Shown: piece by piece, positions 5,409 through 54,655 of the stretch
Numbering within the stretch: position 1 is the first letter of the stretch
Layout: the number at the start of each line of letters is the position of its first letter
Source of the DNA: Salinispira sp.
GTDB taxonomy: Bacteria > Spirochaetota > Spirochaetia > DSM-27196 > Salinispiraceae
Length of the DNA: 64,000 nt
Assembly (NCBI GenBank): GCA_965226555.1
Contig: CBDDDG010000014.1
Span: 32,001-96,000 of the forward strand
Direction of reading: 5' to 3'
Translations under genes and position numbers: made by a program
Notes under the pieces: generated by a model
Seen by the model: only the letters and a program-made list of their open reading frames with translations
The model's database searches: none
Told to the model about the DNA's origin: nothing

Positions 5409-5457
5409 GTTTTGCCTTGGAAAATTGCGCTTGCGCAATTTCCAGTAGCAAAACTTT
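5409..5457. repeat. Palindromic element, long core
   Basis: GTTTTGC-CTTGGAAAATTGCGCTTGCGCAATTTCCAGTA-GCAAAAC; about 9 long-core copies in the window. Confidence 0.9.
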
Positions 5458-5541
5458 GTGAATGCAAAACTTTCTTTGGGATATTACTGTTTGATCAGCC
5501 CGGACGCATGGCGAACCGGATGCTTGGGCGAGCAGCGCCAA

Positions 5542-5841
5542 TTAATGCGATCCGTTCCGCACTGTCCGCATTTCCTCATCGCTCAGCCCGGTAACATCCT
5601 GAATGTCATGGGCTGAAAATCCTTTGGAAAACATACTGCGGGCGTTTTTTCTCCGCTCTTCAATATGCCCCTCAGCGCGGCCTGTTCGCAATCCTTTCAG
5701 AATGCCCTCAGCCCGGCCCTTTGTGATACCCTGCTCAAGACCTTCAACACGGCCTTTCAGAATACCTTTCTCCATTCCTTTCAGAATGCCTTTCTCCATA
5801 CCTTCCCTCACGAAGGCGTTGGTTATGTTATATGTCCGCAT
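5542..5841 (-). CDS. Putative internally initiated small Rpn protein (RpnS-like, 99 aa)
   Basis: AAGGAGAAAACAGT-ATG in frame; AGGAG RBS and ATG conserved in all family A copies. Confidence 0.7.
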   Translation of the reverse strand: MRTYNITNAFVREGMEKGILKGMEKGILKGRVEGLEQGITKGRAEGILKGLRTGRAEGHIEERRKNARSMFSKGFSAHDIQDVTGLSDEEMRTVRNGSH

Positions 5842-6591
5842 ACTGTTTTCTCCTTCAGGATATACTTCCCTGTCAATTTTCTCAAACTGCTCATACAGTC
5901 CCAAATCTTTTAGATAACCTAGCACACTCTCTGCCAGATCAGTAAAGTCTTGTGATGACAGACCGTTCAGGAGCTGCGCAATTTCTTTCAGCCCCTCAGC
6001 GTTCATTTCATTGTCTCGCATTATATACCACAACGCAGTCGATGTATATCGTTTTCCATCGAAACGCCATGCCAACTGTTTTTTGTCCATTCGCCTCAGA
6101 TCGCGCACAATGTACGACACTTTCACCTTGACATCTACCGTGCCTTCAGTCATGGATTCGGAAGCAGCATTTCCATGCGAACTGTAAAATGTGAGTGGGA
6201 GGTTCCATTCCTTTTTTCCATGGTAGAGCAGCAGTATATAGATAGCATCATTTTCATTGTACACATTGCTGTTTCTGAGGGCATACTGATAATTATCGAT
6301 TTGAGTGAGAGCATGTTTATTCAGGTAGCTTTTATGTTCAGTAATAAATAGAGCTTTTCGCTCGGGGTCTGACAAGAAGGGGGCGCTAACAACGAGATCG
6401 CAGTGAAGGTTCTTTTTTCCCGCAATGTAGCTGGGGTTTTCAATGCGGATTTTGTCCAGATCCAGCTTGGCAAGCGTTGTATCCTCACAGAACAGCCGCA
6501 GTAGGTCGGGAATCAGCCGGGGGGTTCTGTAGTAGGCGATCTTGAAGGCTATGTCGTGGATGTGGCCTGTGCTGTGGGATGATTTTTTCAT
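5542..6591 (-). CDS. Rpn/YhgA-like PD-(D/E)XK nuclease, family A, intact
   Basis: HDIAFK, HCDLVV, FITEHKS, LLLYHG; C-terminal EG/KG repeats and ARSMF..GLS tail. Confidence 0.9.
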   Translation of the reverse strand: MKKSSHSTGHIHDIAFKIAYYRTPRLIPDLLRLFCEDTTLAKLDLDKIRIENPSYIAGKKNLHCDLVVSAPFLSDPERKALFITEHKSYLNKHALTQIDNYQYALRNSNVYNENDAIYILLLYHGKKEWNLPLTFYSSHGNAASESMTEGTVDVKVKVSYIVRDLRRMDKKQLAWRFDGKRYTSTALWYIMRDNEMNAEGLKEIAQLLNGLSSQDFTDLAESVLGYLKDLGLYEQFEKIDREVYPEGENSMRTYNITNAFVREGMEKGILKGMEKGILKGRVEGLEQGITKGRAEGILKGLRTGRAEGHIEERRKNARSMFSKGFSAHDIQDVTGLSDEEMRTVRNGSH

Positions 6592-6680
6592 AAATATCTC
6601 CTGCTATATCTATAACGGGAGAACTGTCATTTTTGACTATGTTTTTTGAGAGAATTTGAAAGAATGTTGTGTTTCGCAAA
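6592..6680 (-). promoter_or_regulatory. Shared rpn 5' leader with GTCA-N4-TGAC palindrome
   Basis: Homologous to leaders at 14502-14595, 16690-16792, 32066-32170, 34929-35032, 52704-52823 and partial 43720-43757. Confidence 0.75.
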
Positions 6681-6965
6681 GGTGGATTGATATGAATTGC
6701 CTGGTAAGAGAGTATTCGGTGTTTCGGGAATTAAGGCAGGAGCAGCAGTTTCCGGCTGCGGGTGCGCAGAACAAAAACCTCTGCGAAAATGGGCAAAAAA
6801 GAAAAAGTGCTTGGCACAAACGAATTTTTTGATGATACTGGATCACAGTGGAGCTTAAAAAAACGCTATTTTAGCGATGCAGTGGGAAATACCCGTGTTT
6901 CCAGAGCTTCCCGTAACTTATCGTAACGCGGTTTTTACCGCATAACAATCTCAAGGAGGTAATTC

Positions 6966-7324
6966 ATGGGAACAGACAAGTCATTAAAGTGGTCATCAAG
7001 ACCATCTCCGGAACAGGTACGCAAATATCAAGAGAAATGGAATGAGCTTGATCATTATGTGTCGAATGAGAAATCCTTGGAAAAATTATTCACGGAGATA
7101 TATCCTGAAAATAATAATAGGGATGAAGTACTCATTAAAATTGGCGTGCTGAACTCCTTCCTAATGATGAGGATCACGTTCCAAAGCTCAGGAATTGTTA
7201 TTCGTTTGCAACAAAGTATTGTAGCCATCATTGTCCAGATGTCTATCCAATTTATGACGGCAATGTGGATGAAATACTCTATGCCGGAGTAGCGGAACAA
7301 TTAGCCGCTTCCGAAACAATATAA
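6966..7324 (+). pseudogene. Internally deleted/frameshifted conserved hypothetical gene
   Basis: RBS AAGGAGGT; N-terminal ...VLIKIGVLNSF switches frame near 7160 to RNCYSFATKYCSHHCPDVYPIYDGNV. Confidence 0.6.
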
Positions 7325-7459
7325 TCAAATACAAAGAAAGCATTCCTGACGGACGCATTGGCGAGCCGGATGCCCGGGCGCGCAACGCCGACCAGCCGTC
7401 ACTTGATCGAAAAAAGGCAGGCACGGATTTTTTTTCCGCGCATAAAAGAATATGCGCGG

Positions 7460-7510
7460 AAATTTTGCATTGGAAAATTGCGCTTGCACAATTTCCAGTA
7501 GCAAAAGGTT
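7460..7510. repeat. Palindromic element, long core
   Basis: ATTTTGCATTGGAAAATTGCGCTTGCACAATTTCCAGTAGCAAAA. Confidence 0.9.
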
Positions 7511-7524
7511 TTATTCTTGCAGGT

Positions 7525-9216
7525 TTATGGGGTATACCACGTTGGATAATTCGGTTGATCCCCACTATCGTCATTACTAGCCGGATTCGCATCCAAACCG
7601 GAATCCTTAAACATATCGGTTGTGGTTACCGAGTTATCCACCGCCCATCTCTCAAGATTTTGATTGAATTCGTCTGCCTTGTTGAACATCGCCGACATAT
7701 CCGTTACTGAACCGACATTCCAGCCAGAGATATCAATATTGAATACTTTTGCTCCAGCGAACATATAGGACATATTCGTTACCATACTGACATCCCAGCC
7801 GGAAATATCGCCATTGAATGCGTGTGCGTCAGTGAATATATAGGACATATTTATTACCGCGCTAACGTTCCAGTCGGATATATCGCCATTGAATGCCCTT
7901 GCTGAACGGAATATAGCTTCCATGTTCGTTACCGAACTGACATCCCAGCCAGAGATATCGCCATTGAATGCCGTTGCGGTAAAGAACATTTGTTTCATAT
8001 TTGTTACCCTGCCAGTATCCCATCGTGAAATATCGCCATTGAATGTGGTTCGATCACTGAACATATCGGACATATCCGTTACCGCAGTGGTAATAATGTA
8101 GTTGAGATTGGCAGTATTGCCCCAGATTCCGGAGTCATTGGTGTCGGTGATGTCTCCTATCGCCGCAGTTACCGCTGTTTTCAGTTGAGCGTTAGTAGCA
8201 GGGCTCACGGTAACAAAGAGATATTCGGCAAACCATACATCTCCATTTCCGTTTTCGCCATATACCAGATATGTTCCTGCTGTTGTACTTGCGCTAACCG
8301 TAACAATTCCGGTACCCGCATTAACAGTCGGAATGGTGACACTTGCGGGCGCAGTTGCGGGGGTAACCGTAATGGTTCCTGATATTTCATTGGCCGCAAG
8401 AGTGCCCGGTTCCACGGTGGTCAACTTAACGGTTGGATTCTCACGGGCAATTATGGCAGTATTGGCAGCCGAAAGGCTTAGCGATGCTGCCGTACCCCCA
8501 GGAGTCTGCTGCGCCGCAACAATTAACGGCGTTTCCGTTGCAATTTCCGACCATGTACCAGTGCCCTCGTTGTTCACGGCGCGCGCCTGTACTTCGTAGG
8601 AAGTGCCGTTTCTCAGGCCTCTAATGGTGTAGCTTGCGGCTGGCGCGGCGAGTACAATAATTTCCGACCAGTTGGTACCGCCGTCCGTGCTATGTCGCAG
8701 GTGGTATGCGGTAATTTCGCTGCCGCCGTTGTCGGCAGGCGCGCTCCATGCAACCAGTAAATGCCTGTTCCCCGGTTCAAGGGTTGGGGCAGCCATTGTA
8801 CCCGGCGCGGCAGGGGGCACAGTTGGCGCAATAGGGCGTGCCGTGGCAGATGCCGACCAGCCGCCAATGCCCTGCGCGTTGACGGCGCGTACCTGCACGG
8901 CATAATTCATGCCGTTTGTCAGCTCGGTAATGGTGTGGCTTGTGCCGGTAATACCGGATGTGATCTCTGTCCAGCTCTCGCTGTCGACTTGACGATAGCG
9001 CAGGTGATACTCAGTAATATCGTTTCCTAGGTTGTTGTCTCCCCAATTCCATGTGGCAGGATCGACCCACGATGCAGTAAGTTGGCCATTCCCCGCTTCG
9101 AGAGTTGGAGAATACATGGCAGGCGGCGTAGTCAGTATGGGACATCCCGCAAGCAATGTAATGGATATTGAGCAAAAAATGAAAAAGGTTATTCCTTTGT
9201 ACGACCTAATTCTCAT
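7525..9216 (-). CDS. Surface lipoprotein 1: 2x FN3 + 6x DUF285/BspA-like 25-aa repeats
   Basis: Signal ending LLAGC, RBS AGGAGGT; FN3 motifs (LTNGMNYAVQVRAVN..G.G.WS); WDVSSVTNM..MF..A..FNGDIS repeats. Confidence 0.9.
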   Translation of the reverse strand: MRIRSYKGITFFIFCSISITLLAGCPILTTPPAMYSPTLEAGNGQLTASWVDPATWNWGDNNLGNDITEYHLRYRQVDSESWTEITSGITGTSHTITELTNGMNYAVQVRAVNAQGIGGWSASATARPIAPTVPPAAPGTMAAPTLEPGNRHLLVAWSAPADNGGSEITAYHLRHSTDGGTNWSEIIVLAAPAASYTIRGLRNGTSYEVQARAVNNEGTGTWSEIATETPLIVAAQQTPGGTAASLSLSAANTAIIARENPTVKLTTVEPGTLAANEISGTITVTPATAPASVTIPTVNAGTGIVTVSASTTAGTYLVYGENGNGDVWFAEYLFVTVSPATNAQLKTAVTAAIGDITDTNDSGIWGNTANLNYIITTAVTDMSDMFSDRTTFNGDISRWDTGRVTNMKQMFFTATAFNGDISGWDVSSVTNMEAIFRSARAFNGDISDWNVSAVINMSYIFTDAHAFNGDISGWDVSMVTNMSYMFAGAKVFNIDISGWNVGSVTDMSAMFNKADEFNQNLERWAVDNSVTTTDMFKDSGLDANPASNDDSGDQPNYPTWYTP

Positions 9217-9353
9217 ATGTGTTACCTCCTAAGGTAAAAAGATGATGAACTGAAATTATAAATTAGTTGGATGCTGATAGTCAAGAGAAATTTGCGTCAA
9301 TTCCGCGGTGTGAACGCGGAATGTTCCGGCATCGGTTTCCGCGGGCATCAGGT

Positions 9354-9995
9354 TCAGCGGGACAGGCGCTCCACGGCGTCGCGAGCCTGCGAGAGGTTGC
9401 CGTTGAGTTCGAGAGCCCGCCTATAGGCCTCAAGAGCATAATTCGGATCGCCGGCCTGTTCACGGACAAAGCCGAGGCGTTCCCAGGCATCAGCGTTGCC
9501 GGGCTCAAAATACAGCGCTGTGGAAATTGCTATGTCGGCTGCATGATATTCCTCAAAGCGGATATGTATTTCACCCATGAGCAGGTATATCTGATCAATG
9601 AAGTTTCCACTCGGACGCACAGCTGCATAGTCCTGAAGATACTGGAGCGCCGAAAGGTTGTTTCCCAATTCATACTGGGCTTCAGACATAATTGCGAGGA
9701 TTCGGTGATCATATCGGGATACATCAAGCCCCCTCTGCGCAGAGTCCACGGCGCCGGCCCAATCTCCCAGAGCCAGAAATGCCCAGCCCTGAACCGCATA
9801 GGCATCCATATTTCCCGGAGTTCTCGCAAGCTCTCTTTCGGTTATGCGGATAGATTCCGAGTAGTTGCCTTCACGGAAGCTCTGAAGGGCATCTTCCCGT
9901 TCTCTGCTTTGCGCTCCCATTGCCGGAAGTATCAGCATCGAAAATATCAGCATGAATAAGAGAAAAATTGGTGTGTATCTGTTCATATTTTTCAT
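9354..9995 (-). CDS. Tetratricopeptide-repeat protein, exported
   Basis: Signal peptide; TPR-like helices (ADAWERLG..ALEAYRRALELN); ATGA overlap with upstream gene. Confidence 0.8.
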   Translation of the reverse strand: MKNMNRYTPIFLLFMLIFSMLILPAMGAQSREREDALQSFREGNYSESIRITERELARTPGNMDAYAVQGWAFLALGDWAGAVDSAQRGLDVSRYDHRILAIMSEAQYELGNNLSALQYLQDYAAVRPSGNFIDQIYLLMGEIHIRFEEYHAADIAISTALYFEPGNADAWERLGFVREQAGDPNYALEAYRRALELNGNLSQARDAVERLSR

Positions 9996-10360
9996 GTGTC
10001 GGTCTCGTTTTTTTTCTGCATGGCGCACTTCCCGTTCAGCCGGCTTCCGCTTTGAATAATGAGGTCGGGGGTGTGAATTTCCCCGTGTATACTGCCGTTT
10101 TTGAAGAGTTCAAGCCGCTTGCGCGCATGAATTTTCCCAAACACTGCTCCCCGAATACTCACCACGGGGGCTTCAATATCTGTTCGCAGCTCCGCCTTCT
10201 CACCAACATAGAGATTGCTGCCGCTGACAATTGAACCGCTTATTTTTCCCTTTACGAGAATGGGATCTGTCAGATTCATTACTCCTTCAAACTGAACATC
10301 GCCGGCAATGACAGTTTCAAGGCTCGCTTCATCAATGTTACGGATACGGATGTCCGACAT
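9992..10360 (-). CDS. Bactofilin / polymer-forming cytoskeletal protein
   Basis: ETVIAGDVQFEG...IRGAVFGKIHA...GSIHGEI..PDLIIQSGSRLNGKC. Confidence 0.9.
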   Translation of the reverse strand: MSDIRIRNIDEASLETVIAGDVQFEGVMNLTDPILVKGKISGSIVSGSNLYVGEKAELRTDIEAPVVSIRGAVFGKIHARKRLELFKNGSIHGEIHTPDLIIQSGSRLNGKCAMQKKNETDT

Positions 10361-10380
10361 AGTTCCTCCCCGGCATCATG

Positions 10381-11142
10381 TTAATCTATTGCCGTCATTT
10401 TGTCATCATCATATTCATTGGACAGATCATTGTCCAGAAGGCGGATGATATTATTGAACTGCTCCACCATTTGACGGCGGATTTCTGCCGTGTGGGGATT
10501 GTAGCGCTGGAGGTCGAGGAAGAGCTGCACGGGATCGTTACAGGTCTGCTCCATGACTTCGAGGATTTTCTGAAAGCCGAGGGTGGAGATGGATGAGGGA
10601 TGAATATTCAGGCTGGAAACGAGGCGCCCAATAAAATGGGTTACCCCCTGGGTGCGGGCTGCCTCACGATCATGCTCATCGGCGTTCATTACCAGTACTC
10701 GCAGGCCTGCCTCCGTGAATATGCTTTTCCAGCGCTCAAGGACTTTCTGCCCGACACGCCAAGGGGTAAGCACTATGGGGGAATTTTTCTGATCGGCTGA
10801 GTCGGGACCAAACATGGGATGTGTGCCGAGAATGGGCTGGGCAGCGGGCAGTATCTGCCCGAGCTGGGCGAGCGGCCAGGTTTTCACCGAGCAGGTATCG
10901 AGAACGAGGGTTTCGGGAGCAAGGAGGGGGGCTATGCGCGAAGCGACCTGCGGCAGTGACGATATTGATGTGCAGAGAAACAGGGCATGAGCACGGCAGA
11001 GTTCCTCCAGCGGCGCAAGGGTAACCAAGGGCGGAGCCTCCCGCGGGGTTCTGTTGGCGGCGCGGACATCGAAGCCCTGCGCTGCCAGAAATTCAGCCCA
11101 GAATCTGCCGAATCGTCCAAGACCATACACAGCAATTATCAT
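10381..11142 (-). CDS. tyrA: Prephenate/arogenate dehydrogenase
   Basis: Rossmann motif IAVYGLGRFG, DTCSVK, THPMFGPDS, EHD..AARTQGVTH; true start at 11142. Confidence 0.85.
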   Translation of the reverse strand: MIIAVYGLGRFGRFWAEFLAAQGFDVRAANRTPREAPPLVTLAPLEELCRAHALFLCTSISSLPQVASRIAPLLAPETLVLDTCSVKTWPLAQLGQILPAAQPILGTHPMFGPDSADQKNSPIVLTPWRVGQKVLERWKSIFTEAGLRVLVMNADEHDREAARTQGVTHFIGRLVSSLNIHPSSISTLGFQKILEVMEQTCNDPVQLFLDLQRYNPHTAEIRRQMVEQFNNIIRLLDNDLSNEYDDDKMTAID

Positions 11143-11228
11143 ATGTGCTATTATATCAACGTTTTGCAAAATGCAAAAGTTTCTATGGATGATAGGGTGC
11201 GGGCGCTGCGCAGGCGCGGGAGCTGTAT

Positions 11229-12305
11229 ATGAGTTTTGTTCAGAAAATGCGCAACAGGGCGCGGGCGCTGCAGCGGCATCTTGTGCTGCCGGAGGGCAGT
11301 GAAGAGCGGACGATGCGGGCTGCGGAACGCATTCTCGCGGAGGGTATTGCGGCGCGGGTGAGTCTTGTTGGGGAGCCGGAGCGGCTGCTGCGGCAGGCGG
11401 AGCAGATCGGTGTGAGGTTGTCGGGCATTGAGCTTGTTGATCCTGCCCGCGATGCCCGGAGGGAGCGCTACGCGGAGGAATACCACGCGCTTCGCAAACA
11501 CAAGGGGCTGAGCGGGGAGCAGGCCTTTGCCGACATGGCTCATGGTCTGCGTTGGGGCTGCATGATGCTCCGCATGGGCGATGCCGATGCGGTGGTCGCC
11601 GGTGCCGGGAATTCCACCGCCAATGTACTGCGGGCTGCATTCACCATTATAAAAACACGGCCCGGAATTGACGTAGTTTCATCATGTTTCGTCATGCTCC
11701 TGAAAGATAGAGCCCGGGGCAGCGATGGACGCATGATCTTCAGCGACTGCGCCATTATTCCAAGCCCGAGCACGGAGCAGCTCACGAGCATCGCGTCAGC
11801 GGCGGCAGAAAGCTGCCGGACATTTCTGGAAACCGAACCGGTAGTAGCAATGCTGAGTTTTTCTACCAAAGGCAGCGCCGAAACAGAAGAAAGCCAGCGG
11901 GTACGCCGCGCAACCGAACTGCTGCGCAAGCAGCACCCCGAACTCATTGTGGACGGAGAACTACAGCTCGATGCCGCCATTGTCCCTGCTGTTGGAGCGC
12001 AAAAGGCCCCGGGATCACCTGTGAACGGAGGGGCAAACACCCTTATTTTCCCCGATCTCCAGTCGGGAAACATCGGATATAAACTGGTTCAGCGTCTGGC
12101 AGGAGCTCAGGCCATTGGCCCCATTCTCCAGGGGCTCGCGAAACCAGTCAGCGATTTAAGCAGGGGCTGTTCAGTCGATGATATTATCAACACCGCCGCC
12201 TTTACCATTGTTCAGAGTGGACGGCAGCCCAATCAACAAAAAACAGAGCAGCAAAAGCCCAATCAACAAAAAATAGAACGACAGCAGAACGGAGCAGCAA
12301 CATGA
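11229..12305 (+). CDS. pta: Phosphate acetyltransferase
   Basis: VLPEG, SDCAI, MLSFSTKGS, DGELQLDAA, FPDLQSGNIGYK, DLSRGCS. Confidence 0.95.
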   Translation: MSFVQKMRNRARALQRHLVLPEGSEERTMRAAERILAEGIAARVSLVGEPERLLRQAEQIGVRLSGIELVDPARDARRERYAEEYHALRKHKGLSGEQAFADMAHGLRWGCMMLRMGDADAVVAGAGNSTANVLRAAFTIIKTRPGIDVVSSCFVMLLKDRARGSDGRMIFSDCAIIPSPSTEQLTSIASAAAESCRTFLETEPVVAMLSFSTKGSAETEESQRVRRATELLRKQHPELIVDGELQLDAAIVPAVGAQKAPGSPVNGGANTLIFPDLQSGNIGYKLVQRLAGAQAIGPILQGLAKPVSDLSRGCSVDDIINTAAFTIVQSGRQPNQQKTEQQKPNQQKIERQQNGAAT

Positions 12306-12322
12306 CAGACAGGAGCAGAAGC

Positions 12323-13075
12323 ATGAACATTACCCTCGTTGGCTACGGACGAATGGGGAAGGAAGTTGAGGCAGCCGCGCAGGAGCGCGGGCACAGCATT
12401 GTTTCCACGGTTGACCCGCGGGGAGGCACCTTCGCCGAACTGAGCCCCGCGGCGCTCAGGAACAGCAGCGGTATTATCGAATTTGCCCACCCTGAAGGCA
12501 TTTTGCCTCGAATATCGCTTGCCGACGAGTATCAGATACCCTATGTCATCGGCACCACCGGCTGGGATTCAGGCGGACAATTCAGTAAAGAGGTGAAAGC
12601 AATTGCCGACAAAAAGAATGCCGCCGTCCTGATCGGATCGAATTTCAGTGTTGGCGCAAACCTTTTCTTCAGAATTGCCGAAGCCGCAGCCGCCGCGATA
12701 AACGCCTTTCCCGACTATGACATTGCGGTGAGCGAATCGCATCATCGAAAAAAGAAGGACAGCCCATCGGGATCGGCACTCACAATTGCCGAAAAAATTA
12801 TCCGCGCCAACAAGCGCAAAAACCGCATCTGCGCCGAGCCCCTCCAGCGTGAAATTGCCGAAGATGAGCTTCATATCAGCTCCCTGCGGGCAGGCAGCAT
12901 TCCCGGCATTCACCGGGTAATTCTCGACAGCCCCGCCGACAGTATTGTTCTTGAACATAGCGCCCGCGGTCGTTCAGGTTTTGCTGCCGGTGCCGTTCTC
13001 GCCCTTGAATGGCTCCGAAAACAGGAGCGCAGCTTTTACACGGCCGATGATTTTTTCACCGCCATTTTGGAGTAG
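12323..13075 (+). CDS. dapB: 4-hydroxy-tetrahydrodipicolinate reductase
   Basis: GYGRMG, VIGTTG, SNFSVG, ESHHRKKKDSPSG, RSGFAAGA. Confidence 0.95.
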   Translation: MNITLVGYGRMGKEVEAAAQERGHSIVSTVDPRGGTFAELSPAALRNSSGIIEFAHPEGILPRISLADEYQIPYVIGTTGWDSGGQFSKEVKAIADKKNAAVLIGSNFSVGANLFFRIAEAAAAAINAFPDYDIAVSESHHRKKKDSPSGSALTIAEKIIRANKRKNRICAEPLQREIAEDELHISSLRAGSIPGIHRVILDSPADSIVLEHSARGRSGFAAGAVLALEWLRKQERSFYTADDFFTAILE

Positions 13076-13112
13076 GAAAACCACAGCAGCGACAACGCGC
13101 GCAAGTGAGGGC

Positions 13113-13149
13113 AAAGTTTTGCTACTGAAATTTTATTTAGGCAAAACTT
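13113..13149. repeat. Palindromic element, shortened core
   Basis: AAGTTTTGC-TACTGAAATTTTATTTAG-GCAAAACTT. Confidence 0.75.
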
Positions 13150-13195
13150 CAAAAAGTGATCCCGCCGCATGGGCGCGCAGGCCGAGCAACGTCAA

Positions 13196-13504
13196 TTAAT
13201 GCGATCCGTTCCGCAATGTCCGCATTTCCTCATCGCTCAGCCCTGTAATTCTCTGAACAGCCTCGGTCGACAACCCTTCCAAAAACATACTGCGGGCCGT
13301 TTCTCGAATGCCTTCTTCACGACCTGTCTGCAATCCTTCCTGCCGACCTGTCTGCAGTCCTTCCTGCCGACCTGTCTGCAGTCCTTCCTGCCGACCTGTC
13401 TGCAATCCTGTCTGAAGTCCTTCTTCACGACCTGTTCGCAGTCCTTCCTGCCGACCCATTTCCGCAATGCGCGCTTTGAATGTTTCCGCATTCATTCTGA
13501 ACAT
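13196..13504 (-). CDS. Putative internally initiated small Rpn protein (102 aa)
   Basis: TAAGGAGGT-AGCGAAA-ATG, a perfect SD in frame; conserved in all three family B copies. Confidence 0.75.
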   Translation of the reverse strand: MFRMNAETFKARIAEMGRQEGLRTGREEGLQTGLQTGRQEGLQTGRQEGLQTGRQEGLQTGREEGIRETARSMFLEGLSTEAVQRITGLSDEEMRTLRNGSH

Positions 13505-14272
13505 TTTCGCTACCTCCTTACCTCTCGGTTCTTTTGTTCTTTCTAATCTGTTCATTAACGTATCTAAATCTATAACAATTCCGAACATCGAATCTACCAC
13601 GCCGACAAATTCCTCTATCAGCTCCAGCGATTCCTCATTCAGCATTCCTGCTATCGCCTTTTCTACTATTTGAATGTCCCAATCCGTATTCAGCAGATTT
13701 TTCGAGTACAGATCAAGGTACATAACAGCCGCAAACATTCTTCCTCGCTGCTGCAGCTGCTTCGCAGAATAATCGTTCTCACTTATCAGATCGTAGGGAA
13801 AGGGAGCAAGATACTGCGGGAATTTCCGCTTCCGTTGCTTTCTAACATTCCCGGGCACCTTCCATTTTCTCGTACCATTATAGAACACAATGGGAAGAAA
13901 TACCAATTCACAGTCATCGGGAATTGCGCCGGAGCGGTGAATGTTCCGGTAGAGAAGATTTGTGTACTCCGACATGCGGAGGGGCATGTCGTTGTCCACT
14001 CCAGACTGATGCTCAAGGAGCACATAGATAACAACATCTCCCGTGTGATCCCGAGTTCTGATTTTGCAGATAATGTCGGCCATTCGTGTTTTTGCATGGT
14101 CGATGAAAAAGGTACCGTTTTCGATGGTTATGTCCTCGGTTCGCAATTTTTTCGTCCATGCGCCTCCGACAAAGCGTTGCAGAAATTGGAGCATTATTGC
14201 GGGTTGGAACAGCAGGGAGCGGTATCCTTGGTCGTAGGGAACGGGGGCGGGTTTTTCTTTGAAATCGATCAT
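13196..14272 (-). CDS. Rpn/YhgA-like PD-(D/E)XK nuclease, family B, intact (358 aa)
   Basis: RBS AGGAGG; YDQGYR, RMADII, LLEHQS, MPLRMSEY, LPIVFYNG; GRQEGLQT 24-bp repeats. Confidence 0.9.
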   Translation of the reverse strand: MIDFKEKPAPVPYDQGYRSLLFQPAIMLQFLQRFVGGAWTKKLRTEDITIENGTFFIDHAKTRMADIICKIRTRDHTGDVVIYVLLEHQSGVDNDMPLRMSEYTNLLYRNIHRSGAIPDDCELVFLPIVFYNGTRKWKVPGNVRKQRKRKFPQYLAPFPYDLISENDYSAKQLQQRGRMFAAVMYLDLYSKNLLNTDWDIQIVEKAIAGMLNEESLELIEEFVGVVDSMFGIVIDLDTLMNRLERTKEPRGKEVAKMFRMNAETFKARIAEMGRQEGLRTGREEGLQTGLQTGRQEGLQTGRQEGLQTGRQEGLQTGREEGIRETARSMFLEGLSTEAVQRITGLSDEEMRTLRNGSH

Positions 14273-14286
14273 ACAATCCTCCTGAA

Positions 14287-14439
14287 CGAAAGTTTTGCTA
14301 CTGGAAATTGTGCTTGCACAATTTTCCAATGCAAAAATTTCTATAAAATAGAAGAATGCTAAGCACATACAAAGCATTCCGAATCTGAAACTTTTGCTAC
14401 TGGAAATTGTGCAAGCACAATTTTCCAAGGCAAAAGTTT
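14287..14439. mobile_element. 153-bp double-palindrome insertion in the rpnB leader
   Basis: Absent from the paralogous leader at 52861-52898; two long palindromes plus spacer, flanked by CTGAA direct repeats (14282-86, 14440-44). Confidence 0.8.
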
Positions 14440-14667
14440 CTGAAGGTTTTTCTGAACGTTTCTTTCTGAATAGGGGAGTTCCCATGGCGACATGGTCCCA
14501 TGGTGAATTCTCCCCCTCTATATCTGTGACGGGTAAACTGTCATTTTTGACTGTGTTTTTTGAAAAAATTTGAAAAAAGTTCACCTTTTGCAAAACATTA
14601 CTATTGCACAGGTTTTGTGGACATGATACTATGCAACAATCTTATAATTTATCGTGAGGAGGAAATC

Positions 14668-16284
14668 ATGAATGTCAAATTATATACGGGAACCCGGTTT
14701 CTACTCTGCGCGATGTGCATAGCATTAATTGCTGCATGTCCGATGCCGGAACCCGAGCCAATGCCGGAACCCGAGCCAACTGTGCCGGGTACAATAGGTG
14801 CCCCAGACCTTAAAGCGGGGAATGGGCAACTAACGGTTAACTGGACTGCTCCGAACAACGGCGGCAGCGAAATTACCACATACCACCTTCACCATAGCGC
14901 GGACGGCGGTACCACATGGTCGGAAATTATTGCACTTGCCGCGCCAGCCGCAAGCTACACCATTCCCGAACTGACAAACGCCGCTGAGTACCATGTACAG
15001 GCGCGCGCCGTCAATGCAGTCGGCGCTGGGTCATGGTCGGAATCTGCCGTTGCAACTCTCCCTGCCGCTGCAACTCCCCCCGCCGCCGTTCCTGACGCGC
15101 CGGCTGCCCCAACCCTTTATGCGGGCACTGGGCGGATCGTTGCGAGATGGTCTGAACCGGACGATAACGGCAGCGAAATTACCGGGTATGAGCTGATATA
15201 TCGCGAAGTCGGCGTAACCGCATGGACGGCTGCTTCCGGCATCACCGGCACAGATTACACCATTACGGGACTGACAAACGGTGCTCTCTACCACGTGCAT
15301 GCGCGCGCCATCAACGCGGAGGGCGCTGGACCCTGGTCTGCCCCCGCGCTGGGATCGCCGATCTCATTTCCTCCGACACAGACTCCTTCGGGTACGGAAA
15401 ATTCTATAAGCCTTTTGGCTGCCGATAATGCCATTAATACTGCCAGTATTGCCAATGAGAACCTGAACCTCAGCGTTTCTTTGATTACGGGCACTTACAC
15501 GGTCAATGACTCAGGAAACATTACGATAAGCACCGTAACTCCGCCCGGAACGGTCACCATTCCGACAGTTGATCCGAGTACCGGACTTGTTACGGTTACC
15601 GCAGGTACAACGGCAGGAACATATGTGGTATATGGCGAAATAGAAAGCGGAGACATACTCTTTGCCGAATATCTCTATGTTACTGAGAGTCCAACAACTA
15701 ACGCTGAACTGAAAACAGCGGTAACTACGGGGATATCAACTTGGGGACCAACTGCCGATTTCAACTACATTATTACCACGGCAGTAACGGATATGTCATC
15801 TGTTTTTATTGCCAACGCCACATTCAATGGTGATATTTCCGGTTGGGATACTACAGCGGTAACGGATATGTCCAATATGTTCTATTTAGCAAGAGCATTC
15901 AATGGCGATATTTCCGGTTGGGATGTCAGTTTGGTAACGGATATGTCCGCTATGTTCAATACCGCAAGTGTCTTCAATGGCGATATCTCAAACTGGGATG
16001 TCAGTAAGGTAACGAATATGACCGCTATGTTCATTAGCGCAAGTGTCTTCAATGGCGATATCTCACTCTGGAATGTCAGAGCGGTAACGAATATGCAAAA
16101 TATGTTCAAAGATGCAAGTGCATTCAATCAGGATCTTGAAGAGTGGGGGGAGCATCTGACGCTTAATGACAGTAGCAAATACACCGGAACCACAACAGAT
16201 ATGTTTAAGGATTCCGGTTTGGATGCGAATCCGGATAGTAATGACGATAGTGGGGATCAACCGAATTATCCATCATGGTATTAG
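14668..16284 (+). CDS. Surface lipoprotein 2: 2x FN3 + 5x DUF285/BspA-like repeats
   Basis: RBS GAGGAGG, signal ending LIAAC, PE linker; putative promoter TTGCAC-17-TACTAT upstream, echoed at lipoprotein 4. Confidence 0.9.
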   Translation: MNVKLYTGTRFLLCAMCIALIAACPMPEPEPMPEPEPTVPGTIGAPDLKAGNGQLTVNWTAPNNGGSEITTYHLHHSADGGTTWSEIIALAAPAASYTIPELTNAAEYHVQARAVNAVGAGSWSESAVATLPAAATPPAAVPDAPAAPTLYAGTGRIVARWSEPDDNGSEITGYELIYREVGVTAWTAASGITGTDYTITGLTNGALYHVHARAINAEGAGPWSAPALGSPISFPPTQTPSGTENSISLLAADNAINTASIANENLNLSVSLITGTYTVNDSGNITISTVTPPGTVTIPTVDPSTGLVTVTAGTTAGTYVVYGEIESGDILFAEYLYVTESPTTNAELKTAVTTGISTWGPTADFNYIITTAVTDMSSVFIANATFNGDISGWDTTAVTDMSNMFYLARAFNGDISGWDVSLVTDMSAMFNTASVFNGDISNWDVSKVTNMTAMFISASVFNGDISLWNVRAVTNMQNMFKDASAFNQDLEEWGEHLTLNDSSKYTGTTTDMFKDSGLDANPDSNDDSGDQPNYPSWY

Positions 16285-16545
16285 TTTCATAGCCCATAGC
16301 CCGCAGTGAACAGCCCTGCGCTCCAACTCCGGCTGGTCGGCGCGGGGGCTGCTCGCTCATGTCGCCCGGCTCGCCCATGCGGCTGTTGCTGAGACTGGGC
16401 TGGTCGGCGTTGCGCGGCTGCTCGCCATGAGGTGGGATTAGGCTAATATCCCGAAAAAATCGAAAATTCTGCAAAATTTTCTCATTACATCATCCACCGT
16501 GCGCGCATACCCTGTTTATGTGGTATGGGCAACAATCATATAGGA

Positions 16546-16687: not shown

Positions 16688-16792
16688 ACCATTCCCGACT
16701 CTCTGAAAAAAATTCACAAATTTTGCAAAATTCTTTCAAAATACATAGTCAAGAATGACTTTTCTCCCGTTATAGATATAGGAGGAAAAAAT

Positions 16793-42108: not shown

Positions 42109-42158
42109 TTGCCCACTCAGTGGAATGTTTTTTGCTCCTGATGTATGCTGAAACATCT

Positions 42159-48638: not shown

Positions 48639-48791
48639 ACTATTATAATAGGATAAAACAATGTGTTTGTCAATGCCCCATGTGTCTGTTGCTGAGGATG
48701 GGGTGCTAAGGATGGGGTCAGATCACAGTAATATCCCCCATGTCCGTCGTCTCATCATTTGATATGTGTTCCTGAATGTAGTATACTCATT

Positions 48792-48847
48792 GAAACTTTT
48801 GCTGCTGGAAATTGCGCACGCACAATTTTCCAATGCAAAAGTTTCTA
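48792..48847. repeat. Palindromic element, long core, upstream of lipoprotein 4
   Basis: GAAACTTTTGCTGCTGGAAATTGCGCACGCACAATTTTCCAATGCAAAAGTTTC. Confidence 0.9.
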
Positions 48848-48914
48848 CCATTGCATAGGGTATTTGAAAATGATACTATGCAAGAATCTTAAACCCTATA
48901 GTAAGGAGTTAACT

Positions 48915-50402
48915 ATGAATGTTAATTTTATGCGGATGAGGAACCTTTTTCTATTCTGCGCAATGTTTATCATATTGATTGCTGCATGTCCGATGCCGGA
49001 ACCGACCCCTGAACCCGAGCCAACCGTGCCGGGTACCATGGCTGCGCCAACCCTTAAAGCGGGGGATGAGCGACTCATTGCTACATGGACTGCGCCGAAC
49101 AATGGCGGCAGCGAAATTACCGCGTATGAGCTGCAATATCGCACAGGCAGCGGAGCATGGACAGAAATTACCGAAGGCATCGGCACAAACACAAGCCACA
49201 CCATTACCGGACTGACAAAGACCGCTGAGTACGACGTACAGGTGCGCGCCGTCAATGAAATCGGCGCTGGCGACTGGTCGGAATCTGCCGCTGAAACTCC
49301 CCCTGCTACTGTTCCTGACGCGCCGGATGCCCCAACCCTTTATGCGGGCACTGGGCGGCTTGTTGCTCTATGGACTGCGCCGGAAGATGACGGCGGCAGC
49401 CCCGTTACCGGGTACGAATTGCAGTATCGCACAGGCGGCGGAGCATGGACGGAAATTGCTCCGGCACCGGGCACGCACGACCACAGCATTGACGGCCTGA
49501 CAAACGACGCTCTCTACGAAGTACGGGCGCGCGCCATCAATGCAGTCGGCGATAGCGGCTGGTCTATGCTCGCAACGAAAACACCAACAGATTCTGCGAT
49601 ACGGACTTCTGCGGGTACGGCAGTAAATGTAAACCTTTCGGCTGCTCTTAATGAAATTATTGCCAGTGAGAAACCAGCCCTTTATGTGACGACGGGCACT
49701 CACACGGTTAATGAAATGGGAGACATTGAGGTAACCTACGTAGCTACGCCCGCAGGGATCACCCCGCCGACTTATGAGCCGCTTACCGGTACTACGATTA
49801 CGGTTACCGCAGGTACAACAGCAGGAACATATCTGGTATACGGCATTAAAACAGAAACCGATGACATACTCTTTGCCGAATATCTCTATGTTACCGTGAG
49901 TCCAACAACTAACGCTGAACTGAAAACAGCGGTAACTACGGGGATATCAACATGGGGCAATACTGCCGACCTCAACTACATTATTACCGCGGCAATAACG
50001 GATATGAGCGGTCTGTTTGGTATCGCAAACACATTCAATGGCGATATCTCACTCTGGAATGTCAGTAAGGTAACAAATATGCAGGAAATGTTCACTTTTG
50101 CAAGCGAATTCAATGGCAATATCTCCGGCTGGGATGTCAGTAGGGTAGAGAATATGAAAAAAATATTCCGTGTAGCGAGCAAATTCAATAACGATATCTC
50201 CGGCTGGAATGTCAGCTCGGTAACGAATATGAGCGAAATGTTCGAACAAGCAAGAGCATTCAATCAAGATCTTGAGGAGTGGAAGGAACATTGGTCGCTT
50301 GCTGCCGGGACGCTCAATTCCGCTGGCAAATATACCGGAAACAAAAACAATATGTTTGGGAATTCCGGCGTAACAGGTGATTTGATTCCCTCATGGTATT
50401 AG
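48915..50402 (+). CDS. Surface lipoprotein 4: 2x FN3 + 4x DUF285/BspA-like repeats
   Basis: RBS TAAGGAG, signal ending LIAAC. Confidence 0.9.
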   Translation: MNVNFMRMRNLFLFCAMFIILIAACPMPEPTPEPEPTVPGTMAAPTLKAGDERLIATWTAPNNGGSEITAYELQYRTGSGAWTEITEGIGTNTSHTITGLTKTAEYDVQVRAVNEIGAGDWSESAAETPPATVPDAPDAPTLYAGTGRLVALWTAPEDDGGSPVTGYELQYRTGGGAWTEIAPAPGTHDHSIDGLTNDALYEVRARAINAVGDSGWSMLATKTPTDSAIRTSAGTAVNVNLSAALNEIIASEKPALYVTTGTHTVNEMGDIEVTYVATPAGITPPTYEPLTGTTITVTAGTTAGTYLVYGIKTETDDILFAEYLYVTVSPTTNAELKTAVTTGISTWGNTADLNYIITAAITDMSGLFGIANTFNGDISLWNVSKVTNMQEMFTFASEFNGNISGWDVSRVENMKKIFRVASKFNNDISGWNVSSVTNMSEMFEQARAFNQDLEEWKEHWSLAAGTLNSAGKYTGNKNNMFGNSGVTGDLIPSWY

Positions 50403-50464
50403 GAGTTTCATAGCCCGCAGCGGCCAGCCCTGCCCCCTACCTCAGGTGCAGAACAGGAGCGAAA

Positions 50465-50635
50465 CAAACTGTTTTTTATGATGAAAATGCTATTGTATTT
50501 GATGACCCCGAGCATTCTCATTCAGAAGACAGATTCATCATCGTTGGTTTTTGTACTCAGGGAAAACTACTTCTTGCATGTTTCTGTGAGAGAAGTGAGG
50601 ATATCATCAGAATAATTTCTACCAATCGCTTATGA
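50465..50635 (+). pseudogene. BrnT-family toxin internal fragment
   Basis: QTVFYDENAIVFDDPEHSHSEDRFIIVG...DIIRIIS; no start, N-terminus missing, no antitoxin. Confidence 0.75.
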
Positions 50636-50754
50636 GCCTCTATTTACGATCTTGCGCGATATCCAGAAAAAAATCCCTCATAAAAAGAATAAAAAGGCAC
50701 TATGGGAAACCATACAAATCAGAATTTCGACATCCGTAACGCTGTCGGTCATAA

Positions 50755-52478
50755 GAGCCTGTCGGACTTTACCCGGGTTGATAGTGGTATTGCGTTTGAT
50801 TGGAGAATCTGATATAGTTTTTTCATGCAACGATTTAAGTCATGTAGTCAAGATCAACAATTCCTGATGCCTCTTGATATGAGAGATTGGGTTCCCGAAG
50901 ATCATCTGGTCAATTTTATTAACGAAGCGGTAAGCACCATAGACAGTACCGTTTTTCATATCAATAGGCGGGGAAGCGGGAGCGAGCAATATCATCCGAA
51001 AATGATGCTTGCCTTGCTGATATATAGCTACACGGAAGGACGATTTAGCAGTCGCCGGATAGAACGGTCAACGTACGAGAATATCTGTGCGCTCTATCTG
51101 ACCGGCAACACGCATCCCGATCACGATACTATTTGTCGCTTTCGCCGAAAAAATACAGAAGCGATACACAAAGCGTTTATCCGTATTCTGCTGCTTGCCA
51201 AAGAGATAGGCATTCTGAAGGTCGGGACGGTCAGTATAGATGGGACACACATTAAAGCCAATGCGAGTAAATTCGAAAATGTGAGCTATGATCGGGCTGA
51301 GGAGCTGGAGAAACGGCTTGATGAGGACATTCAGAAATTGTTAGTGGAGGCAGAAGCGGCCGATACCGCAGACGATGAGGATGCGAACAGATTACCACAG
51401 GAGATTGCCCGAAGGCAGAAACTCCGCGAAAAGATGATCCATGCGCGAGCTGAAGTGGAAAGACGCGCGCGTGTCCGCGAGGAAAGAGAACAGGAGAAAG
51501 CGGAGAAAAAAGATGGAGCAAATGATACGGAAGATGTTTCCCCCGGCGGGGGAGCGAAGACAGACGCTCAGAGCGAAGGGCCTCCTGATCGGGCGATCCC
51601 GCCTGCGGACGGACAGAAAACACTTTTTGCCGATGATGATCCTGAAGACATTTCAGCGAAGGCACAGGAGATTCTGCCGAAGGGCGAGCAGGCATGCAAC
51701 AACACTGATCCTGACAGCCGTATTATGACAAAGGGATCGGGAACACAGCAGGCCTATAATGCTCAGGCGGTAGTCGATGCCGATGGCACGCAATTAATTG
51801 TCGGGACGCGTGTTTCCCAGTGTTCATCTGACCGGAATGAACTGGTAAACGATTGTCTCTCTGTTCCCCCAGATGTCGGGAAGCCCGAGCGAGCGCTTGC
51901 TGACGCGGGCTTTGTCAATGGCGATGAAGTGAAAACAGTAGAGGAAGAAATGGGGATAGATGTTCTGGTGTCTGTTCGGGCTGAAGAGACACATAATCCG
52001 CGAGAATACGACTATCGACCGGAAGAGAAAAATGCCAACACCACGCCTCCAAAAGAATCCAAGCCATGGATAAAAGATATGAACGCCAAATTTCAGAAGT
52101 CCGAGAACCGAAAACTCTATGCCCGCAGGAAGCAGACGGTGGAACCGGTATTCGGGATTATTAAGCAGTGCATGGGATTTCGACAATTTCTCCACAGAGG
52201 CCTTGCACATGTTACGAGTGAATGGGAACTTGTCGCGTTGGCTTATAATTGCAAGAGACTTCATCGACTGAAAATGACCTATGGATAATAGAAAAACTCC
52301 CCCCGTTGCGCCCGCGCATAGTTCCAACTGGCATCATCGAAGCGCGAATGGGTTCACGATGCCACCCCGCGCCTGAAGAAAACAACGCGATAACTGACGG
52401 CAATACTCATTCCCACCATCATTCCCACATCCATCGACTCACATCAAACAACATTATTTAGTTATGTACGACAGGCTC
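50755..52478 (+). mobile_element. IS1182-family insertion sequence, 1724 bp
   Basis: Terminal IRs GAGCCTGTCGGACTTTAC / GAGCCTGTCGTACATAAC; ATAA duplication (50751-54, 52479-82); empty site at 54541-54555. Confidence 0.95.
50825..52288 (+). CDS. IS1182-family DDE transposase
   Basis: YHPKMMLALLIY..SSRRIE, PDHDTICRFR, IDGTHIKANAS, TDPDSR, ADAG, RKQTVEPVFGIIK. Confidence 0.95.
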   Translation: MQRFKSCSQDQQFLMPLDMRDWVPEDHLVNFINEAVSTIDSTVFHINRRGSGSEQYHPKMMLALLIYSYTEGRFSSRRIERSTYENICALYLTGNTHPDHDTICRFRRKNTEAIHKAFIRILLLAKEIGILKVGTVSIDGTHIKANASKFENVSYDRAEELEKRLDEDIQKLLVEAEAADTADDEDANRLPQEIARRQKLREKMIHARAEVERRARVREEREQEKAEKKDGANDTEDVSPGGGAKTDAQSEGPPDRAIPPADGQKTLFADDDPEDISAKAQEILPKGEQACNNTDPDSRIMTKGSGTQQAYNAQAVVDADGTQLIVGTRVSQCSSDRNELVNDCLSVPPDVGKPERALADAGFVNGDEVKTVEEEMGIDVLVSVRAEETHNPREYDYRPEEKNANTTPPKESKPWIKDMNAKFQKSENRKLYARRKQTVEPVFGIIKQCMGFRQFLHRGLAHVTSEWELVALAYNCKRLHRLKMTYG

Positions 52479-52894
52479 ATAATGCGCCCAATGCAAAAGT
52501 TTTGTAATATCTCAAAATAATAAAAATAATTACAAAAATTTCTCATATTCACCGGTCATATTTTACCCGTCTATATAGTATGGAAAAGATTATATCGGTA
52601 TGGCACCACGCTGACCCACGCAGCTCAATTTTCGGGCTATCGCTTACGCCAGTCAGTCGGATATCGCCATAGACGCGCACCCCTTCCCGTCCACTAACCC
52701 GCATTCCCGAGCCATCCCCTCCCGTAGCCCCAAAAAAAATCACATATTTTGCAAAATTCTTTCCACATACATAGTCAAAAATGACTTTTTACCCGTCACA
52801 GATTATAGAGGAGAGAATTCACCATGGGACCATGTCGCCATGGGAGCTCCCCTATTCAGAAAGAAACGTTCAAAAAAACCTTCAGGAGGATTGT

Positions 52895-54008
52895 ATGATC
52901 GATTTCAAAGAAAAACCCGCCCCCGTTCCCTACGACCAAGGCTACCGCTCTCTGCTGTTCCAACCCGCAATAATGCTCCAATTTCTTCAACGCTTTGTCG
53001 GAGGCGCATGGACGAAAAAACTGCGAATCGAGGACATAACCATTGAAAACGGTACCTTTTTCATCGACCATGCGAAAACACGAATGGCCGACATTGTCTG
53101 CAAAATCAGAAGTCGGGATCATACGGGAGATGTTGCTATCTATGTGCTCCTTGAGCATCAGTCCGGCGTGGACAAAGACATGCCCCTCCGCATGTCGGAG
53201 TACACAAACCTTCTCTATCGGAACATTCACCGCTCCGGCACAATTCCCGATGACTGTGAATTGGTATTTCTTCCCATTGTGTTCTATAATGGCACGAGAA
53301 AATGGAAGGTGCCCGGGAATGTCAGAGAGCAGAACACGCGGGAATTCCCGCAGTATCTTGCTCCTTTTCCTTACGATCTTATTAACGAGAGCGATTATTC
53401 TGCGGAGCAGTTGCAGCAGCGGGGAAGAATGTTTGCGGCTGTTATGTACCTTGATCTGTACTCGAAAAATCTGCTGAATACGGATTGGGACATTCAGAAG
53501 GTGGAGAAAGCGATAGCAGAAATGCTGAATGAGGAATCGCTGGAGCTGATAAAGGAATTTATCGGCGTGGTAGATTCGATGTTCGGAATTGTTATAGACT
53601 TTGACACGCTAATGAACCAGTTAGAAAGAACAAAAGAACCGAGAGGTAAGGAGGTAGCGAAAATGTTCAGAATGAATGCGGAAACATTCAGAGCTCACAT
53701 TGCGGAGATGGGTCGGCAGGAAGGACTTCAGACAGGATTGCAAACAGGTCGACAGGAAGGTCGTGAAGAAGGATTGCAGGAAGGACTTCAGACAGGACTT
53801 CAGACAGGTCGGCAGGAAGGACTGCGGACAGGTCGGCAGGAAGGACTTCAGAAGGGGCTACAGGCAGGTCGCGCGGAGGGGCATATTGAGGAGCGGAGCA
53901 AAAAACGCCCGCAGTATGTTTTCCAAAGGATTTTCAGCCCATGACATTCAGGATGTTACCGGGCTGAGCGATGAGGAAATGCGCACATTGCGGAACGGGT
54001 CGCATTAA
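52895..54008 (+). pseudogene. Rpn family B, nuclease domain intact, +1 frameshift near 53899 in the tail
   Basis: GAGCGGAGCAAAAAAC versus GAGCGGAGAAAAAAC; internal SD and ATG at 53663. Confidence 0.85.
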
Positions 54009-54115
54009 GTTGGAACCGCTCGGCCTGCGCGCATAGCGGATAATAAAAAGGTTTTATGGTAAGATAACTAGGGATGAAATTCGAGCATTTCAGAAAAACG
54101 GACAAGGATAATAGT

Positions 54116-54560
54116 GCTGGCAAATATACCGGAATCAAAGGAGATATGTTTTTGAGTTCCGGCGTAACAGGTGATCTGATTCCCTCATGGTATTAGGAGT
54201 TTCATAGCCCGTAGGGGCCAGCCCTGCCCCCTACCTCAGGTGCAGAACAGGAGCGAAACAAACTGTTTTTTATGATGAAAATGCTATTGTATTTGATGAC
54301 CCCGAGCATTCTCATTCAGAAGACAGATTCATCATCGTTGGTTTTTGTACTCAGGGAAAACTACTTCTTGCATGTTTCTGTGAGAGAAGTGAGGATATCA
54401 TCAGAATAATTTCTACCAATCGCTTATGAGCCTCTATTTACGATCTTGCGCGATATCCAGAAAAAAATCCCTTATAAAAAGAATAAAAAGGCACTATGGG
54501 AAACCATACAAATCGGAATTTCGACATCCGTAACGCTGTCGGTCATAATGCGCCCAAGGC
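54116..54560 (+). repeat. Direct duplicate of 50322-50754 plus 52483-52498 (lipoprotein tail, 3' region, BrnT fragment 54259-54429)
   Basis: Near-identical over about 430 bp; lacks the IS. Confidence 0.95.
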
Positions 54561-54655
54561 AAAACTTTAGTTCAGGCAAAACTTTATCAATGCAAAAGTT
54601 TCCAATATAATGAGGAATAAATATCCGCGGGTTAATAGTGAGGTTTGATGTTTTC

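Follow-up and report, generated by a model that had tools for sequence, protein, structure and literature searches.

Dispersed islands of rpn and FN3-DUF285 lipoprotein genes in a Salinispira genome: probable recombination between copies, with rpn as a likely passenger

Why should genes for Rpn nucleases recur beside genes for variable surface lipoproteins in four separate islands of a spirochaete chromosome? The question is raised by a 64,000-nucleotide stretch of the genome of an uncultured Salinispira sp. (hereafter the window: positions 32,001 to 96,000 of contig C14 of genome G000, which comprises 2.98 Mb in 26 contigs), where each island combines a lipoprotein made of fibronectin type III (FN3) domains and PARCEL/DUF285 repeats with one or two rpn genes. 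A preliminary description had proposed a dispersed cassette network in which rpn genes drive, stabilise by addiction or provide homology for the spread and reshuffling of surface adhesins. The explanation that we prefer, with a probability of roughly 0.58, is that the four islands belong to a set of 137 whose genes descend from one unit with the order lipoprotein, terminator, rpn, that these genes were multiplied and reshuffled through recombination of the ordinary kind among dispersed copies, and that rpn accompanies them as a selfish toxin-antitoxin passenger of the RpnL/RpnS type.

Genome-wide pairing and the shared linker

The genome carries 158 rpn loci of at least 250 bp (72 of class A, 51 of B, 17 of D, 11 of E, six of C/G and one of F), distributed over 110 clusters, 82 of them single, together with 98 FN3 + DUF285 lipoprotein genes and 39 partial or one-domain loci. 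The 137 islands total 599 kb, about a fifth of the genome; 60 contain both families, 43 lipoprotein genes only and 34 rpn only. All lipoproteins had been described as rpn-linked, which is true of the window, whereas genome-wide only 53 of the 98 have an rpn within 1.5 kb. Where the two families meet, the rpn lies downstream on the same strand in 48 of 58 pairs and upstream on the opposite strand in eight, the remaining two arrangements being represented by one pair each (p = 4e-20). The suspected co-location above chance is confirmed, since islands with both families exceed the 32 expected with 300 insertion slots (p = 8e-13) and the 48 expected with 200 (p = 8e-4), and the overlap stays above chance at every slot number tested, from 2000 down to 200. 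As controls, GYD-repeat lipoproteins lie near rpn in 12 of 43 cases, in mixed orientation (6/3/3), and insertion sequence (IS) families in 1/13 to 5/10. These 43 GYD-repeat loci, ankyrin proteins and at least seven IS families are further expanded families of this genome, which also holds about nine copies, at 99% identity, of a 1466-bp element of no assigned identity; overall, 26% of the genome is present in two or more further copies.

Thirty relatives have at most six PF04754 (Rpn) and 14 PF03382 (DUF285) matches per genome, matches not being copy numbers, and the named close homologues of the window rpn genes from outside are all labelled Salinispira sp. A search of the genome contigs database found no close rpnA homologue and one distant match, a metagenome contigs search did not find rpnB, and of the linker described below a search in 98 genomes belonging to the order gave nothing but one 28-bp match. 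Likewise, no rpn was found in 78 metagenomic PARCEL loci (432 kb; the best-scoring 80 of 601 were retained, many with short flanks); in genome G014 the distance between an rpn and a PARCEL gene is 7.6 kb. Our literature search found no paper combining Rpn and DUF285, nor one on lipoprotein-rpn pairing, and a term search of a paper on a latrunculid sponge spirochaete (PMC12478362) gave no match for Rpn, fibronectin, transposase or lipoprotein.

The two genes of a pair are joined by one and the same linker. In 48 of the 51 PARCEL genes followed by an rpn, repeat sequence runs unbroken up to the rpn through hairpins, GC-rich repeats, a class-C promoter, a stub and a leader, and in 41 of the 54 PARCEL genes with no rpn downstream the linker ends after 0-466 bp. 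What had been called an rpnC stub corresponds to the 5′ portion of a class-C rpn gene that is known here in full length. Class-C 5′ DNA lies upstream of 85 of 134 A, B or E loci, and stand-alone class-C RpnS frames occur at nine places, seven of them open and seven immediately following a copy of class A, B or E. Because the downstream same-strand order is fixed and the linker is shared, the pair appears to descend from one lipoprotein-rpn unit, for which insertion hotspots are an inadequate explanation; as had been suggested, the islands form a dispersed network rather than chance assemblies. To judge from these sequences, ordinary recombination was the likely means by which the pair spread from a single such ancestor, composed of lipoprotein, terminator and rpn. 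The founder would have been a lipoprotein followed by rpnC, whose body would later have given way to those of classes A, B and E by way of the leader and tail that the classes have in common. The hairpin with U-run that follows the island 3 lipoprotein is terminator-like (folding z -6.7, although a simple terminator scan did not report it), so that lipoprotein and rpn are likely transcribed apart, and with a probable terminator between the genes an operon is unlikely.

At four places (C10:308623, C14:144607, C14:146734 and C14:203832) the 3′ end of an rpn continues directly into PARCEL repeat coding sequence, a fusion that we read as recombination inside the PARCEL repeats. Elsewhere, right ends of IS5 lie directly upstream of lipoprotein genes (C18:18459, C23:24722, C26:19813 and C10:557219), where they may be a source of promoters.

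The window islands and their rpn copies

The repeat-covered spans of the four islands are 5409-9237 (with a gap at 6917-7330), 13156-17929, 30959-36192 and 48714-54571, in agreement with the bounds first described, and with the lone rpn between islands 3 and 4 they comprise the following features (MITE, miniature inverted-repeat transposable element; ORF, open reading frame).

5410-5453, strand not assigned: IS5-derived palindromic miniature element, left end of island 1
5542-6591, minus: rpn class A, intact; RpnS frame 5542-5841, 99 aa; PF04754 39.6 bits
7525-9216, minus: lipoprotein of island 1, two FN3 domains and PARCEL/DUF285
13196-14272, minus: intact class-B rpn in divergent orientation to the lipoprotein gene; RpnS 13196-13504, 102 aa; PF04754 64.7 bits
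14560-16284, plus: lipoprotein of island 2, two FN3 domains and PARCEL; likely start near 14668
16285-16792, plus: shared linker of island 2, with GC-rich repeats, class-C promoter region, 5′ stub 16444-16681 and leader
16793-17884, plus: rpn class A, split just before the EHKS motif by a MITE of ~129 bp (about 17043-17171); RpnS 17672-17884, open, with a class-C type tail
30968-32065, minus: rpn class A of island 3, intact, divergent; RpnS 30968-31315, 115 aa
32377-34556, plus: lipoprotein of island 3, three FN3 domains and PARCEL; G10 tract 32414-32423; ORF from 32412
34557-35033, plus: shared linker of island 3, with two hairpins (the second with a U-run), class-C promoter, stub 34684-34919 and leader
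35034-36071, plus: class-A rpn whose nuclease part has a small frameshift; open RpnS at 35784-36071
43779-44625, plus: lone class-B rpn carrying two deletions as well as a MITE (about 44098-44226); RpnS 44389-44625, open
48759-50402, plus: lipoprotein of island 4, two FN3 domains and PARCEL; likely start near 48915
50322-50754, plus: 433-bp direct repeat, copy 1, covering the 3′ end of the lipoprotein gene with its flank; 97% identity to copy 2
50755-52478, plus: IS1182-family element of island 4; NF033551 319.6 bits
52493-52671, plus: class-C promoter region and internal class-C fragment of island 4
52895-54008, plus: class-B rpn with an open nuclease part and a frameshifted RpnS tail, a state seen in three of 106 copies
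54116-54548, plus: 433-bp direct repeat, copy 2

The four lipoprotein genes, the seven rpn copies (six of them within the islands) and the divergent upstream rpn of islands 2 and 3 are all present as first described. The account of an rpnC stub in three islands stands in part: the stub is real and clear in islands 2 and 3, whereas island 4 has only the promoter region and the internal fragment, with IS1182 preceding this class-C remnant, and island 1 has no stub at all. All four lipoproteins have a lipobox and match PF03382 with 121-376 bits, and the two tested with TIGR02167 score 89 and 97 bits; the name 'adhesin' is suggested by their domains, the role of PARCEL proteins being putative. In island 3 the G10 tract sets the upstream start out of frame with respect to the body. 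Across 14 related lipoprotein starts the length of this G tract varies from 3 to 19, with eight of the 14 out of frame, differences that most probably reflect phase variation. Four of the window rpn copies score 39.6-67.5 bits with PF04754 (cut-off 21); with TIGR01784 the scores of four copies are 22.9-51.5 bits, all under the cut-off of 52.1. Three of the seven are intact (those starting at 5542, 13196 and 30968), three combine a disrupted nuclease part with a C-terminal frame that is still open, and one has the tail frameshift. Between the lipoprotein and the rpn of island 1 lies an unrelated gene fragment on the opposite strand (6966-7292, with no Pfam or PADLOC match), and in island 4 the 433-bp direct repeats bracket IS1182 and rpnB, which could be the mark of a tandem duplication or of an integrated circle. 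Outside the islands, a GmrSD-like nuclease gene (1917-3704) is separated from island 1 by 1.7 kb. At 42105-43603 there is a type II methylase, which has a PD-(D/E)XK neighbour and whose gene adjoins the lone rpn at 43779.

The rpn copies resemble known toxin-antitoxin genes in which the antitoxin RpnS is made from an internal start and rescue depends on the number of four-residue repeats (PMC10400941). A ribosome-binding site (RBS) and an in-frame internal ATG are predicted for RpnS at 50/51 B and 66/72 A loci, the B RpnS frames measure 66 to 142 aa, their lengths differing by multiples of 4 aa, and the RpnS sequences are distinct in 49/49 B and 62/65 A copies. The nuclease motif reads LEHQS in 30/30 intact B, IEHKS in 4/4 E and EHKS in 19/28 A copies (one has ERKS and eight are unmatched by the pattern). 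The Rpn nuclease relies on such a PD-(D/E)XK-type motif (D..ExK/ExQ). About 60-70 genes are intact overall (28 A, 30 B, 4 E and about 9 D), and the ratio of non-synonymous to synonymous changes (pN/pS) in the intact nuclease parts is 0.22 for A and 0.17 for B, the pairs compared not being independent.

Among the 106 A and B copies with both starts, the nuclease part is broken in 46, and RpnS is open in 44 of these; over all 106, RpnS is broken in three, one more flagged copy being a pattern miss. The lesions are not read errors, since 43 of the 46 broken copies carry insertions or deletions rather than homopolymer slips. They lie at about a dozen sites, several of them common to 3-16 copies, in all combinations, and in 21 copies a MITE sits a few codons before the RpnS start while sparing its RBS. 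The three RpnS breaks compare with about 21 expected per base and 11 per target (p = 0.005 if copies were independent, which they are not). Taken as genetic evidence and not as proof, these counts are suggestive of RpnS being kept open during nuclease decay, and, together with the internal starts and four-residue steps, they are consistent with the earlier view of rpn as a toxin-antitoxin gene. A single-sequence structure model gives a helix at 249-331 and two short helices (pLDDT about 80 in this part and 48 over the whole model), so RpnS is modelled as three helices, of which the long first one bears the repeats; the fold obtained in the same way for the nuclease part was not good enough to be used in a fold search, and a PDB sequence search matched only a repeat artefact. 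Rpn toxicity, its neutralisation by RpnS and protection from phages are here putative, by likeness to E. coli.

Recombination between copies and rival explanations

Both families appear as mosaics. The rpnA lesions at codons about 85, 101, 194 and 245, as well as the 160-bp deletion and two MITE sites of rpnB, are found singly and combined across contigs, and four-gamete incompatibility in rpnB climbs with distance from 0.45 to 0.70 (p = 0.001). Each of the four window lipoproteins has different closest paralogs in different segments, with a median best-paralog identity of 84%. Gene order is affected too: against the relative G004 (2.78 of 3.78 Mb compared, 931 orthologues), 33 of 43 island junctions are broken versus 34 of 133 island-free wide gaps, and ten island junctions show a simple insertion between neighbours. 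This comparison supersedes a first pass over 1.58 Mb, in which 33 of 134 break ends faced an island against a background of 116/1092. The gene that follows dapB in five of five relatives is now on contig C22 behind another rpnB, with dapB and its former neighbour both facing rpn tails; similarly, pfk and the gene at 44924, near neighbours in G004, each face an rpn tail in G000. The homology-based reshuffling that had been proposed is thus supported for both families and for the chromosome.

Such exchange would proceed by gene conversion and crossovers mediated by RecA; recA, mutS and mutL are present in the genome. The nuclease would be toxic and RpnS would neutralise it with a repeat-count specificity as in E. 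coli, making the loss of an intact copy or of its RpnS costly and allowing copies to accumulate, while the lipoproteins would be retained by their own selection for surface diversity. In this mechanism rpn would ride as a self-protecting passenger and not act as the engine of movement. Our guess for the seeding of new island sites is illegitimate insertion of pieces of variable length, sometimes with IS ends.

Several observations weigh against this explanation. The incompatibility in rpnA has no distance trend (0.49 versus 0.54, p = 0.49) and is high throughout; G004 is a distant relative, and the junctions may have been loose before the islands arrived there. None of 50 long matches of at least 97% is a recent whole duplicate of a lipoprotein-rpn unit, so that co-duplication can be read from the linker only, and lipoprotein and rpn similarities barely covary (Mantel tests, one weak signal in four), which together with the lack of whole copies points to swapped partners. 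The asymmetry between RpnS and nuclease part is weaker than the raw counts, as lesions are shared and RpnS has fewer of the AT-rich MITE targets (19 versus 68 in A, 6 versus 63 in B); a stricter test on the 46 broken copies gives p = 0.13. Intact rpn genes are not enriched behind lipoproteins (20/46 versus 42/88 elsewhere), which means that any toxin-antitoxin lock works without visible protection of the lipoproteins, and lipoprotein bodies are open in 95 of 98 genes with or without rpn; the idea that addiction stabilises them, though possible, gains nothing from these numbers. Finally, 6.67% of markers are duplicated in the assembly (93.5% complete) and housekeeping stretches occur in duplicate at 97-99% identity (C1:1-4583 and C12:172383-177034; C13:8637-13103 and C16:36180-40691), which suggests strain mixture or contig overlap, and the family counts may therefore be somewhat inflated.

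Duplicated markers, together with the occurrence of other repeats near rpn, are also what could be adduced for independent families accumulating in shared insertion hotspots or for repeat misassembly, an explanation that we find hardly credible. Against hotspots stand the fixed orientation and the continuous linker, while the GYD controls are mixed. Misassembly is disfavoured by sequencing runs of three studies that carry the flanking DNA fully or partly (the partial ones labelled cave and sponge metagenome, and no RNA dataset among those listed) and that were compared over island 2. Contigs of run X1 cross from unique DNA into both ends of this island with zero differences (9250-13190 and 17856-20729), and read depth over the rpn and lipoprotein parts, which does not equal copy number, is many times that of the flanks in X1, X4 and X5 and raised in X6, with a depth far above the flanks seen in two studies besides that of X1; the repeats are real. 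Moreover, only ten split gene calls occur in 721 orthologous frames. No empty site was seen among the 15 of 130 island 2 junction joins inspected in the metagenome runs, whose contigs are short and uninformative. A different reading accepts the same ancestry and recombination, with intact Rpn nucleases kept as a diversified anti-phage arsenal and the lipoprotein link a historical one. RpnP2 protects E. coli from T-even phages, repeat variation there being read as phage-driven (PMC10400941), and the purifying selection on intact nuclease parts and the methylase and GmrSD-like neighbours in the window agree with it. We nevertheless hold it to be unlikely: some 60-70 intact near-copies of a few classes would hardly diversify defence, inactivated alleles are by now widespread among the copies, and neighbours are far more often lipoproteins than defence genes, the latter not having been tallied genome-wide.

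That Rpn cuts drive the network, starting template switching or gene conversion, seeding islands and shuffling lipoproteins in a transposase- or homing-like manner, the strong form of what the preliminary description proposed, seems to us quite improbable. E. coli Rpn proteins promote RecA-independent recombination and leave 3′-OH primers (PMC5350276), both families are expanded in this lineage only, rpn-linked lipoproteins have more partners sharing exact 60-bp tracts than unlinked ones (median 4 versus 1, p = 0.003), and the seeding of new sites would otherwise lack an explanation. However, the shared flanks of rpn vary widely in length at both 3′ and 5′ sides, with no fixed ends, and target-site duplications are not apparent at the ends of the 137 islands, which are approximate (shared word of 5.28 nt versus 5.21 nt in shuffled pairs). 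Tract sharing is alike beside intact (n = 17) and broken (n = 21) rpn (3 versus 4 partners, p = 0.93) and is located in the 5′ FN3 part, distant from rpn, and lipoprotein-only islands are synteny breakpoints in 12 of 13 cases versus 21 of 30 for rpn-containing ones, tests that do not address action in trans. PMC10400941 also describes Rpn as lacking transposase hallmarks and 'not a transposase'. Nor are the islands at all likely to be composite transposons bounded by MITE ends. The genome does contain 375 palindromic elements in 54-bp and 126-bp forms, 189 of them within islands, whose ends match a resident 1340-bp IS5 (NF033581, 225.8 bits) with 5-bp duplications; outside islands such exact duplications flank 15/32 long and 12/72 short elements (many short ones being parts of long ones) versus fewer than one expected from shuffling, with no peak at any other length. 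From these features the palindrome is most probably an IS5-family MITE; a TA/IS630 or IS200/IS605 origin was rejected, no DDE_3 or Y1 transposase being found in the assembly at its 93.5% completeness. IS5-type ends are present at 37/274 island ends compared with 44/1351 ordinary gene flanks, but no more than 2 of the 137 islands have outward ends on both sides, a clear duplication is missing from the two, and these ends had at most a minor part in island formation. A bolder reading, which is speculative and which we consider doubtful, would be a ratchet in which the 60-70 intact Rpn toxins, each countered by no RpnS but one with its own repeat 'barcode', protect more than 100 islands from deletion, while the toxins, by cutting at a low level in trans, fuel an ectopic recombination to which new islands, the shuffling of the 100-gene surface repertoire and the scrambled gene order are due. 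If true, a selfish toxin-antitoxin family would have been domesticated as the scaffold of surface variation.

Significance and comparison with known systems

With recombined units and rpn as passenger, a fifth of a bacterial chromosome would have become a network whose recombination creates diversity among surface proteins and whose sites coincide with most of the rearrangements there. How rpn spreads without a transposase and whether the RpnL/RpnS rule extends beyond E. coli are questions posed in PMC10400941, and this genome offers a natural experiment on them, with about 160 copies, more than 100 RpnS barcodes and nuclease-killing lesions spreading while RpnS stays open, as well as a ready panel for repeat-count specificity.

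Surface lipoproteins that become mosaics are familiar in spirochaetes. The vls and tprK systems generate antigenic variation by gene conversion of segments, as appears to happen here; unlike them, the Salinispira genes have no single expression site with silent cassettes, most being full frames with their own signal peptide. Addiction modules among variable genes have a counterpart in chromosomal integrons, whose arrays are stabilised by toxin-antitoxin cassettes, whereas here the islands are dispersed, exchange is homology-based and cassettes have no defined ends. The PARCEL/DUF285 genes of the Mycoplasma mycoides cluster and M. agalactiae, which ride mobile islands, share the 25-residue repeat lipoproteins, intragenomic shuffling, empty sites in relatives, poly-G tracts and a link to mobile DNA (PMC2996958). 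In contrast, about 100 genes with FN3 domains in front are scattered singly in Salinispira, and in place of an integrative conjugative element (Tra/ICE) as vehicle they have rpn as partner.

The closest likeness is with RpnL/RpnS of E. coli and C. difficile, which also combine a nuclease domain with a variable tail, an internal RBS and start and four-residue repeat variation (PMC10400941; PMC5350276), and which include stand-alone RpnS, tandem arrays and variable ends with neither inverted repeats nor target duplications (PMC10400941). The largest count quoted there is 26, although its supplementary datasets could hold higher ones, compared with 158 loci in 3 Mb here, most of them dispersed; the Salinispira copies stand in a fixed order with a surface lipoprotein family, their classes share tails, and their stand-alone RpnS derives from a class-C gene with a replaced body rather than from the preceding gene. 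The present tests do not bear out a new Rpn-driven cassette system; what the window reveals is a lineage-specific arrangement, extreme in scale and built of known parts.

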